Positions 17,127 through 19,668 of a DNA stretch of 19,798 nt are shown one piece after another. The notes beneath the pieces were generated by a model. The model made no database searches and was not told where the DNA came from. It saw only the letters and a list, made by a program, of their open reading frames with translations. The position numbers and the translations under genes were made by a program. Within the stretch, counting starts at the first letter, position 1; the number at the start of each line of letters is the position of its first letter. The stretch lies in IMG/VR virus record IMGVR_UViG_2547132280_000005; one strand, written 5' to 3'. This stretch comes from a virus (Duplodnaviria > Heunggongvirae > Uroviricota > Caudoviricetes).

Positions 17127-18212
17127 ATGAAATATCCGACAGGCGTGGAAAACCATGGAGGGAAATTACGTATCTGGTTTGTTTATAAAGGCGTAAGAGT
17201 CAGGGAAAATCTGGGGGTTCCTGACACAGCAAAAAACAGGCGCGTTGCAGGTGAACTACGCTCCTCTGTTTGTTACGCAATAAAAACTGGTGTTTTCGAC
17301 TATGCAAAACAGTTTCCCTCCTCACGCAATCTGGAAAAATTTGGTGAGGCCCGACAAGATTTAACCATAAAAGAACTGGCTGAAAAATTTCTGGCACTGA
17401 AAGAAACTGAAGTCGCCAAAACATCACTCAACACATACCGTGCCGTCATCAAAAATATCCTGAGCATAATCGGTGAAAAAAATCTTGCCTCATCGATTAA
17501 TAAAGAAAAATTACTGGAGGTTCGTAAAGAGCTACTGACTGGATACCAGATCCCCAAAAGTAACTATATTGTTACACAACCAGGGAGATCGGCTGTAACT
17601 GTAAATAATTACATGACAAATCTTAACGCCGTGTTCCAGTTTGGTGTTGATAACGGTTACCTGGCAGATAATCCGTTTAAGGGGATCTCGCCATTAAAGG
17701 AATCAAGAACCATTCCGGATCCTCTTTCGCGGGAGGAATTTATCCGTCTTATCGATGCGTGCAGAAATCAGCAAGCAAAAAATTTATGGTGTGTTTCTGT
17801 TTATACTGGCGTTCGCCCTGGTGAGCTGTGTGCACTTGGATGGGAGGACATAGATCTGAAAAATGGAACAATGATGATCAGGAGAAATTTAGCAAAAGAC
17901 CGTTTCACGGTACCAAAAACACAGGCGGGAACCAATCGGGTCATTCATCTTATTAAGCCAGCAATCGACGCTCTCCGGAGTCAGATGACATTAACGAGAC
18001 TGAGCAAAGAGCATATCATTGATGTTCACCTCAGAGAGTATGGCAGAACAGAAAAACAAAAATGCACCTTTGTTTTTCAACCTGAAGTGTCAGCGAGAGT
18101 AAACAATTATGGTGACCATTTTACCGTTGACTCAATAAGGCAGATGTGGGACGCAGCGATAAAACGTGCCGGACTCCGCCATCGAAAATCATATCAGTCG
18201 AGACATACTTAT
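17127..18212 (+). pseudogene. intQ: Prophage tyrosine integrase, N-terminal and core part, interrupted by IS3
   Basis: Integrase-like ORF (ATG 17127 with GAGAGAAG SD) running into the IS3 left end; its stop is supplied by IS3 sequence. The C-terminal segment continues in frame after the IS3 at 19471. Confidence 0.8.
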
Positions 18213-18277
18213 TGATCTTACCCAGCAATAGTGGACACGCGGCTAAGTGAGTAAACTCTCAGTCAGAGGTGACTCAC

Positions 18278-18577
18278 ATGACAAAAACAGTATCAACCAG
18301 TAAAAAACCCCGTAAACAGCATTCGCCTGAATTTCGCAGTGAAGCCCTGAAGCTTGCTGAACGCATCGGTGTTACTGCCGCAGCCCGTGAACTCAGCCTG
18401 TATGAATCACAGCTCTACAACTGGCGCAGTAAACAGCAAAATCAGCAGACGTCTTCTGAACGTGAACTGGAGATGTCTACCGAGATTGCACGTCTCAAAC
18501 GCCAGCTGGCAGAACGGGATGAAGAGCTGGCTATCCTCCAAAAGGCCGCGACATACTTCGCGAAGCGCCTGAAATGA
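18278..18577 (+). CDS. insE: IS3 OrfA (InsE)
   Basis: [53 protein letters not shown]... matches IS3 InsE as recalled. Confidence 0.85.
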
Positions 18578-19440
18578 AGTATGTCTTTATTGAAAAACAT
18601 CAGGCTGAGTTCAGCATCAAAGCAATGTGCCGCGTGCTCCGGGTGGCCCGCAGCGGCTGGTATACGTGGTGTCAGCGGCGGACAAGGATAAGCACGCGTC
18701 AGCAGTTCCGCCAACACTGCGACAGCGTTGTCCTCGCGGCTTTTACCCGGTCAAAACAGCGTTACGGTGCCCCACGCCTGACGGATGAACTGCGTGCTCA
18801 GGGTTACCCCTTTAACGTAAAAACCGTGGCGGCAAGCCTGCGCCGTCAGGGACTGAGGGCAAAGGCCTCCCGGAAGTTCAGCCCGGTCAGCTACCGCGCA
18901 CACGGCCTGCCTGTGTCAGAAAATCTGTTGGAGCAGGATTTTTACGCCAGTGGCCCGAACCAGAAGTGGGCAGGAGACATCACGTACTTACGTACAGATG
19001 AAGGCTGGCTGTATCTGGCAGTGGTCATTGACCTGTGGTCACGTGCCGTTATTGGCTGGTCAATGTCGCCACGCATGACGGCGCAACTGGCCTGCGATGC
19101 CCTGCAGATGGCGCTGTGGCGGCGTAAGAGGCCCCGGAACGTTATCGTTCACACGGACCGTGGAGGCCAGTACTGTTCAGCAGATTATCAGGCGCAACTG
19201 AAGCGGCATAATCTGCGTGGAAGTATGAGCGCAAAAGGTTGCTGCTACGATAATGCCTGCGTGGAAAGCTTCTTTCATTCGCTGAAAGTGGAATGTATCC
19301 ATGGAGAACACTTTATCAGCCGGGAAATAATGCGGGCAACGGTGTTTAATTATATCGAATGTGATTACAATCGGTGGCGGCGGCACAGTTGGTGTGGCGG
19401 CCTCAGTCCGGAACAATTTGAAAACAAGAACCTCGCTTAG
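18574..19440 (+). CDS. insF: IS3 OrfB (InsF, DDE transposase)
   Basis: 288 aa, overlaps orfA in the -1 frame; DDE integrase-core motifs. Confidence 0.9.
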
Positions 19441-19470
19441 GCCTGTGTCCATATTACGTGGGTAGGATCA

Positions 19471-19668
19471 TATGCCTGCTGGTCGCTGACAGCTGGTGCT
19501 AACCCGGCATTTATAGCAAACCAGATGGGCCATGCAGATGCGCAAATGGTATTTCAGGTATACGGAAAATGGATGTCTGAAAACAATAATGCACAGGTAG
19601 CTTTGTTAAATACACAGTTAAGCGAGTTTGCCCCAACCATGCCCCATAACGAAGCAATGAAAAATTAA
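19471..19668 (+). pseudogene. intQ: Integrase C-terminal fragment (65 codons) downstream of IS3
   Basis: In-frame continuation YACWSLTAGANPAFIANQMGHADAQMVFQVYGKWMSENNN...; HxxR...Y-type C-terminal catalytic region of tyrosine recombinases. Confidence 0.75.

Follow-up and report, generated by a model that had tools for sequence, protein, structure and literature searches.

Can a prophage still leave the chromosome when an insertion sequence (IS) has landed in its integrase gene? The question is raised by IMG/VR virus record IMGVR_UViG_2547132280_000005, a stretch of 19,798 nucleotides (nt) assigned to Duplodnaviria, Heunggongvirae, Uroviricota, Caudoviricetes (hereafter the window), in which IS3 splits the integrase gene intQ of Qin, a cryptic lambdoid prophage of Escherichia coli integrated in ydfJ. 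The insertion of IS3 into a once-intact tyrosine integrase gene was confirmed. As an overall explanation, it is in our view highly probable that IS3 lies between codons 362 and 363 of intQ with the target TAT duplicated, that IntQ is dead and excision of Qin is lost, and that the event was a neutral hit in a decayed prophage.

A complete IS3 element interrupts intQ

The intQ reading frame starts with the ATG at 17127 and runs to KSYQSRHTY, ending at 18212, where it is stopped immediately by TGA, the first three bases of IS3. The frame is picked up again at 19474 (ACWSLTAGANPAFIANQMGHADAQMVFQVYGKW..., ACWSLTAGANPAFIANQMGHADAQMVFQVYGKWMSENN...) and ends with the stop codon at 19666-19668, which places the insertion point after codon 362 of a 426-codon gene (Table 1). 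When 17127-18212 and 19474-19668 were joined in silico, an open reading frame (ORF) of 1281 nt and 426 codons was obtained, which aligned with the intact integrase of strain STEC276 (WP_000877001.1) with one mismatch (nt 978, N326K) and no gap. The frame therefore continues exactly across the duplicated TAT codon, as had been read from the sequence in the initial annotation. In STEC276, an uninterrupted 1281-nt gene annotated as 'site-specific integrase' occupies the equivalent position, with the excisionase gene on one side and rspB on the other, and there is a single TAT at the site. Similarly, when the 3-kb region was used as query, the empty-site genomes aligned as two pieces spanning 1738 bp (i.e., 2999 - 1258 - 3). 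The piece detached by IS3 was initially given as the last 65 residues; the detachment, and that of the catalytic tyrosine region with it, stands, but the piece is 64 residues long (363-426).

The element itself is a complete, 1258-bp IS3 with both ends present, and its TAT duplication is apparent from the sequence as well as from the empty site of STEC276, in line with the first description of the locus. Its left end is TGATCTTACCCAGC and its right end GGGTAGGATCA; the two ends are imperfect inverted copies of each other over about 39 bp, with agreement at 28 of the first 39 positions, including the terminal TGATC. The two ORFs overlap, and an AAAAG slippery site (18540-18544) is found late in orfA, with about 30 nt between it and the orfA/orfB overlap. 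The public PGAP annotation labels the element 'IS3-like element IS3 family transposase, programmed frameshift' (WP_085947771.1) with no pseudogene flag. Together, the overlapping ORFs, the slippery site and the PGAP label point to an OrfAB transposase predicted to be made via -1 frameshifting. The length, the inverted repeats, the 3-bp duplication (occasionally 4 bp) and the empty site in relatives are those of the IS3 family. Compared with E. coli IS3 (IS3 family, IS3 group), the copy in the window is alike in length, TGATC ends, overlapping orfA and orfB, AAAAG, rve (DDE) core and 3-bp duplication, and shows no notable difference. It is an ordinary copy, and the IS3 copies in other strains are 0-2 nt apart from it.

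PGAP marks both intQ pieces as pseudogenes, the N-terminal one as 'Arm DNA-binding domain-containing protein, missing C-terminus' and the C-terminal one as 'site-specific integrase, missing N-terminus'. The split, together with IS3, is thus already visible in the public annotation, and no description of this specific allele was found in a literature search. The sole in-frame start in the C-terminal fragment is the ATG at 19525, with none before it, which would give a 47-aa ORF. The stop codon of orfB (19438-19440) lies just upstream and in the same frame. Promoter-like signals from which the C-terminal fragment could be expressed were not in excess, with 4 matches found and 4.5 expected from shuffling.

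IS3 separates the catalytic residues of IntQ

Pfam Arm-DNA-bind_2 was matched at residues 4-67 (1.6e-23 in the joined protein and 1.3e-23 in the N-terminal fragment), and the SAM-like core-binding matches in the joined protein were weak (about residues 80-190). The catalytic domain, Phage_integrase (PF00589), covered residues 201-392 of the joined protein at 66.2 bits (cut-off 27.1). The N-terminal fragment alone scored 39.5 bits, with residues 201-360 covering positions 4-134 of the 172 in the profile. Searching the sequences of solved structures revealed that residues 151-399 of the joined protein align with the Tn1549 integrase (6EMY/6EN0). Tn1549 residue numbers are PDB chain numbers plus 80; both Y379F, the substitution in 6EMY, and the residues as named in PMC5871717 bear this out. 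The equivalent positions are listed in Table 1.

In addition to the residues in Table 1, K264 of IntQ is found within a conserved PKT motif in the N-terminal fragment. The break parts R230, K264, Y356 and R359 from H382 and Y392, and no single product of the window holds the full catalytic set. Joining the two pieces restores a full-length integrase with its catalytic residues, and both the Pfam coverage and the Tn1549 alignment agree with the earlier statement that IS3 separates the catalytic tyrosine region of a tyrosine integrase. In the Tn1549 integrase, Y380 is required for strand exchange and in vivo excision (PMC5871717). The equivalent Tyr392 is the sole tyrosine in the C-terminal fragment and, as the sole candidate, is probably the nucleophile of IntQ.

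The Int of the Stx2 phage VT2-Sakai (57% identity) and an IntR-type Int (61%) match IntQ over the full length and share its arm-binding, core-binding and catalytic architecture. They differ from IntQ in their attachment site, which for IntQ is ydfJ, and the copy in the window is interrupted. The motif KxYQSRHTYACW...MGH...VYG.W is invariant in both. An earlier lesion, i.e., Tyr356 at the position of the first His, was considered and rejected: the tyrosine is invariant in VT2-Sakai Int, the IntR-type Int and the isolated phage HannyBb. We noticed that, in place of the first active-site His found in most tyrosine recombinases, the integrase subfamily that includes VT2-Sakai Int and the IntR-type Int carries Tyr.

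HannyBb is an isolated, 45-kb E. coli phage (PP925841.1, 21133-28410) whose Int is 99.5% identical to joined IntQ. Its int gene follows the same exonuclease and xis genes, and a DNA invertase gene adjoins. Qin-type phages that use an IntQ-like integrase are still circulating.

Distribution of the split intQ among E. coli genomes

A survey of 5426 complete E. coli genomes revealed that 2710 hold at least 80% of intQ, most at 99% identity or more and the large majority as one uninterrupted stretch. Among the strains in which a near-identical Qin goes with an intact intQ are STEC276 and Ecol_AZ147. The exact IS3/int junction was found in six genomes (TW11681, WS1933D, 504239, 67-1, S1-NGR-02-A and LR883000), each 100% identical, and the 19.8-kb window matches the chromosome of enterotoxigenic E. 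coli (ETEC) TW11681 along its whole length at 100% identity. An assembly artefact was excluded by the occurrence of the same junction at 100% identity in six independent complete genomes. The insertion most likely arose in an ancestor of the small ETEC lineage to which these six belong. Given that the fragments together are 1 nt from intact alleles, the insertion is probably young. The exact junction can serve as a lineage marker; the insertion has little meaning beyond such bookkeeping and is a real but ordinary event.

Consequences for the excision of Qin

We propose that an IS3 copy transposed between codons 362 and 363 of intQ and duplicated the target TAT. The product would end at residue 362, keeping the arm-binding and core-binding domains with Arg230, Lys264, Tyr356 and Arg359 and losing His382 and Tyr392. 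Tyrosine recombinases act via a 3'-phosphotyrosyl intermediate, so that without the nucleophile no DNA is cleaved. Since the nucleophile is missing, Qin is predicted to have lost Int/Xis-dependent attL x attR excision. Unless removed by homologous recombination or deletion, the Qin remnant would then be locked in the chromosome together with the lysis cassette, relBE, hokD, dicA/dicB/DicF and cold-shock genes that it carries. As a rule, IS3-family elements are not known to excise precisely, and reversal is unlikely. In the lineage of the ETEC strain TW11681, which has served in human challenge studies, Qin should be a fixed, non-excising chromosomal segment. The insertion would most simply have been neutral, in a prophage already without morphogenesis genes.

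Several points weigh against this explanation. The activity of the intact allele and the loss of excision are here deduced from sequence. Position 326 is Asn in the window and Lys in both STEC276 and HannyBb. An integrase from a further prophage of the strain might in principle act in trans; no extra near-identical int copy was found in TW11681 at megablast sensitivity (200-bp junction query and 3-kb xis+int query, 8 places each), a search that did not extend to distant paralogues. Finally, RecA-dependent loss of Qin needs no Int.

The initial annotation had described the prophage as apparently immobilised by IS insertions. The loss of excision is indeed predicted from the sequence, but Qin was already defective and not mobile as a phage before IS3 arrived. 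No head or terminase genes are present in Qin here, as judged from the PGAP annotation of TW11681, and the tail genes are gone except for a tail fibre, Lom and a tail-fibre-assembly remnant; Qin should therefore form no virions, whatever the state of its integrase. Its immobility as a phage long predates IS3, which took away at most the capacity to excise.

A rival reading is that intQ was non-functional or irrelevant before IS3, so that the insertion changed nothing in a fossil and immobilisation is not due to IS3. We consider this possible, though clearly the less probable view. Apart from the missing morphogenesis genes, the decay of Qin includes three other IS (IS2, ISCro1 and an IS629-like element), truncated dicC, ydfV and ydfB and a DUF1441 fragment; N326K is one non-synonymous difference between the joined gene and the intact allele; and in K-12, where intQ is defective, excision of Qin was undetectable among about 10^10 cells (PMC3105296). 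The K-12 defect is, however, a different lesion, in which the first 121 nt are missing. In the window, joining restores the whole ORF and leaves none of its catalytic positions empty, xis and both attachment (att) cores are intact, and the joined gene shares 99.5-99.9% identity with alleles that an isolated phage and roughly half of all complete E. coli genomes have kept intact. These points argue against the view that intQ was dead before IS3.

Recurrent IS3 insertions in xis-intQ

At least seven distinct IS3 sites, in both orientations, were found across the 1.6-kb xis-intQ segment among the genomes surveyed (Table 1). A single hotspot at TAT was rejected, as the other insertions are at different positions with different duplications. 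An apparent bias toward the plus orientation in xis/intQ was also rejected as an artefact of joining same-strand pieces only; a query with inverted IS3 yielded 19 more genomes with minus copies. In ET565, the inverted-IS3 query also gave a hint of an insertion near int nt 336, which would be an eighth site. Some of the IS3 insertions in xis/intQ were followed by IS-mediated deletion or inversion. We treated the recurrent hits as the expected accumulation of IS in dispensable prophage DNA.

The alternative is that IS3 hits xis-intQ above the level of neutral prophage DNA, either by regional target preference or by selection for grounding, in which the loss of Int would keep a beneficial cryptic prophage in place (DicB/DicF, RelBE, HokD and the cold-shock genes); the ETEC allele would then be an instance of convergent grounding. 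This appears unlikely to us. The density of about 7 sites in 1.6 kb of xis-intQ, compared with about 3 in the adjacent 2.5-kb exonuclease gene, is consistent with such an excess, as is the loss of the 5' end of K-12 intQ beside an IS2 on the K-12 map. However, the counts are small and detection was uneven, with the minus-orientation search covering part of the exonuclease gene only, and in other genomes IS3 is found also in the exonuclease gene, upstream of exo, in rspA and elsewhere nearby. The target sequences vary (TAT, AAG, TTT, GGG and GTCG). Each disrupted allele is found in one or few genomes and most of the 2710 genomes have intQ uninterrupted, which argues against a strong advantage. 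Neutral insertion into decaying prophage DNA remains the preferred explanation.

That the truncated IntQ(1-362) serves as a catalytically dead protein binding att and arm sites, e.g., to block integration or excision of related phages, is very improbable: the arm-binding and core-binding domains are complete and the native upstream region is unchanged, but the break lies within the catalytic domain, directly after the RHT motif, so that the domain probably misfolds, the allele is limited to six genomes, and promoter-like signals did not rise above the shuffled expectation.

Precedents

The closest precedent is the intQ pseudogene of K-12, which is the same gene in the same prophage and locus (between xis/exo and ydfJ'/rspB) and is likewise inactivated. 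It is 99.7% identical to the gene in the window over nt 122-1281. The two differ in their lesions: K-12 intQ is without its 5' end, which was presumably removed by an IS2-associated deletion (K-12 map), whereas intQ in the window is complete but split by IS3 at codon 362.

Inactivation of the integrase has been proposed as the cause of the grounding of Qin (PMC6379469), and the lack of excision in K-12 is experimental evidence for it (PMC3105296). Like the 'grounded' IS-riddled prophages of pathogenic E. coli, Qin here carries multiple IS and deletions and has kept functional accessory modules; it differs from them in that the case concerns a specific allele of one ETEC lineage only.

All components (IS3, a lambdoid heterobivalent tyrosine integrase and Qin) are textbook members of their families, and no new principle is involved. 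The many independent IS3 hits and the intact alleles in about half of the E. coli genomes fit the accepted view of prophage decay and domestication.

Identity and gene content of the Qin prophage

The prophage was identified as Qin from the PGAP annotation of TW11681, in which it is integrated in ydfJ adjoining rspB and carries dicA/dicB/DicF, relBE, hokD, cspB/F/I, essD-rrrQ-rzpQ and pinQ. The N-terminal ydfJ fragment in the window starts with MTIEKHERSTKDLVKAAVSGWLGTALEFMDF..., and its junction with the prophage carries an 11-bp att core, GAAATCCATAA, which is also found at the opposite prophage end, beside the C-terminal ydfJ fragment (TW11681 locus L003, 27317). That part of ydfJ is annotated as 'missing N-terminus' and lies about 30 kb to the left. 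The arm-binding domain, the adjacent xis and the direct repeats within the disrupted ydfJ are those of a lambdoid heterobivalent integrase module.

From the left, Qin comprises IS2, ydfK and pinQ, a tail-fibre gene, lom and the DUF1441 fragment; ISCro1 (IS66 family), cold-shock genes and the essD-ydfR-rrrQ-rzpQ lysis cassette; the Q antiterminator, rem, hokD, relBE and the truncated ydfV and dicC with the IS629-like element; and dicA, DicF, dicB, ydfD, the gene for an 823-aa exonuclease, xis and the split intQ. An IS66 element had been placed at the left edge of the prophage. This proved incorrect: the left edge at which ISCro1 lies is that of the window, the element is internal to the prophage, and Qin runs about 10 kb further left to ydfJ'. 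The fourth IS, IS2, is in this left part of Qin beyond the window. It should be noted that IS2 (TW11681 locus L003, 27464-28692) lies about 140 bp inside the left end of Qin, beside the att core and the C-terminal ydfJ fragment.

Between the two fragments of ydfJ, the annotation shows no second tyrosine integrase, and the serine invertase pinQ is the only other recombinase; by annotation, the prophage thus holds no alternative intact integrase. The lysis cassette, relBE, hokD, dicA, dicB and DicF are intact by annotation and Rfam, which agrees with the earlier view that the lysis, toxin-antitoxin and dicBF modules have been kept.

Table 1. Features of the split intQ locus and its surroundings, and IS3 insertion sites in xis-intQ. 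Positions are those of the window unless given as int nt or under a locus label.
Feature	Position	Strand	Evidence or remark
IS629-like element	10578..11887		ACC duplication
dicC remnants	10509-10580 and 11888-11950		flank the IS629-like element
DicF RNA	13601-13652		Rfam, 76.7 bits
xis of Qin, excisionase, intact, 83 aa	16841..17092	+	Pfam DUF1233 (1.6e-31); PHROG 539 (1.4e-35); PGAP WP_000005552.1 'excisionase family protein'
intQ N-terminal fragment, codons 1-362	17127..18212	+	Pfam, PGAP pseudogene, alignments
IntQ R230 (Tn1549 Int R225)	17814-17816		N-terminal fragment; alignment
IntQ Y356 (Tn1549 Int H344)	18192-18194		N-terminal fragment; alignment
IntQ R359 (Tn1549 Int R347)	18201-18203		N-terminal fragment; alignment
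TAT target-site duplication, left copy, codon Tyr362	18210..18212		sequence; empty site of STEC276 has a single TAT
IS3, complete, 1258 bp	18213..19470	+ (same orientation as intQ)	terminal inverted repeats, transposase domains, PGAP
IS3 orfA	18278..18577	+	Pfam HTH_Tnp_1
IS3 orfB	18574..19440	+	Pfam rve, rve_2, HTH_21
TAT target-site duplication, right copy	19471..19473		sequence
intQ C-terminal fragment, codons 363-426 + stop	19474..19668	+	sequence, Tn1549 Int alignment, PGAP pseudogene
IntQ H382 (Tn1549 Int H370)	19531-19533		C-terminal fragment; alignment
IntQ Y392 (Tn1549 Int Y380)	19561-19563		C-terminal fragment; alignment
11-bp att core, right-end copy at prophage/ydfJ junction	19706..19716		sequence
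ydfJ N-terminal fragment, Qin integration target	19706..19798	-	translation
IS3 site	xis		GTCG (4 bp); RCAD0514
IS3 site	int nt 89-91		GGG; 39EVA and SEV1 group (upstream deletion in SEV1 group)
IS3 site	int nt ~205		duplication not clear; ET358, 1409
IS3 site	int nt ~560		no duplication; H9Ecoli, rearranged
IS3 site	int nt 770-772		AAG; VTB97584v
IS3 site	int nt 1084-1086		TAT; window, six ETEC genomes
IS3 site	int nt 1165-1167		TTT; I4, IS3 internally deleted
Same locus in other genomes	L004 1684-2941; L005 2600-3857; L006 3995-4780; L007 2501-3758; L009-L012		corresponds to 16841-19668 of the window

Neighbouring modules

The IS629-like element does sit in dicC, as initially annotated, but dicC was already dead when it arrived. 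Of the six genomes with the IS3/intQ junction, four are without this element; IS3 in intQ is therefore older than IS629. In WS1933D, which is among the genomes without IS629, dicC is annotated as a C-terminally truncated, 129-bp pseudogene abutting the truncated ydfV. IS629 as the cause of the loss of dicC was rejected in part, given that dicC is truncated in all four of these sister genomes.

The exonuclease gene (14297-16768, +) is intact here (823 aa). In STEC276 and VTB97584v it is interrupted by an internal stop, and in CPEC80, C9 and the AH04 group IS3 splits it. The decay of exo and int is a mosaic, in which an intact int may go with a dead exo and vice versa.

A 205-aa ORF at 12723-13337 (+) matches phrog_35040 over its full length (5.7e-150). 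At its start, PGAP annotates only a short pseudogene, 'ydfB, missing C-terminus', which is followed by about 960 bp to dicB without a coding sequence, with DicF within. A 106-aa ORF lies opposite (13005-13322, -) in the same stretch; by eye it resembles a multi-pass membrane protein, and it had no PHROG match. Finally, full-length matches to the cspA thermoregulator RNA family were found at 2833-3217 (-) and 5727-6119 (-), with 114 and 159 bits, upstream of cspI and cspB, respectively.

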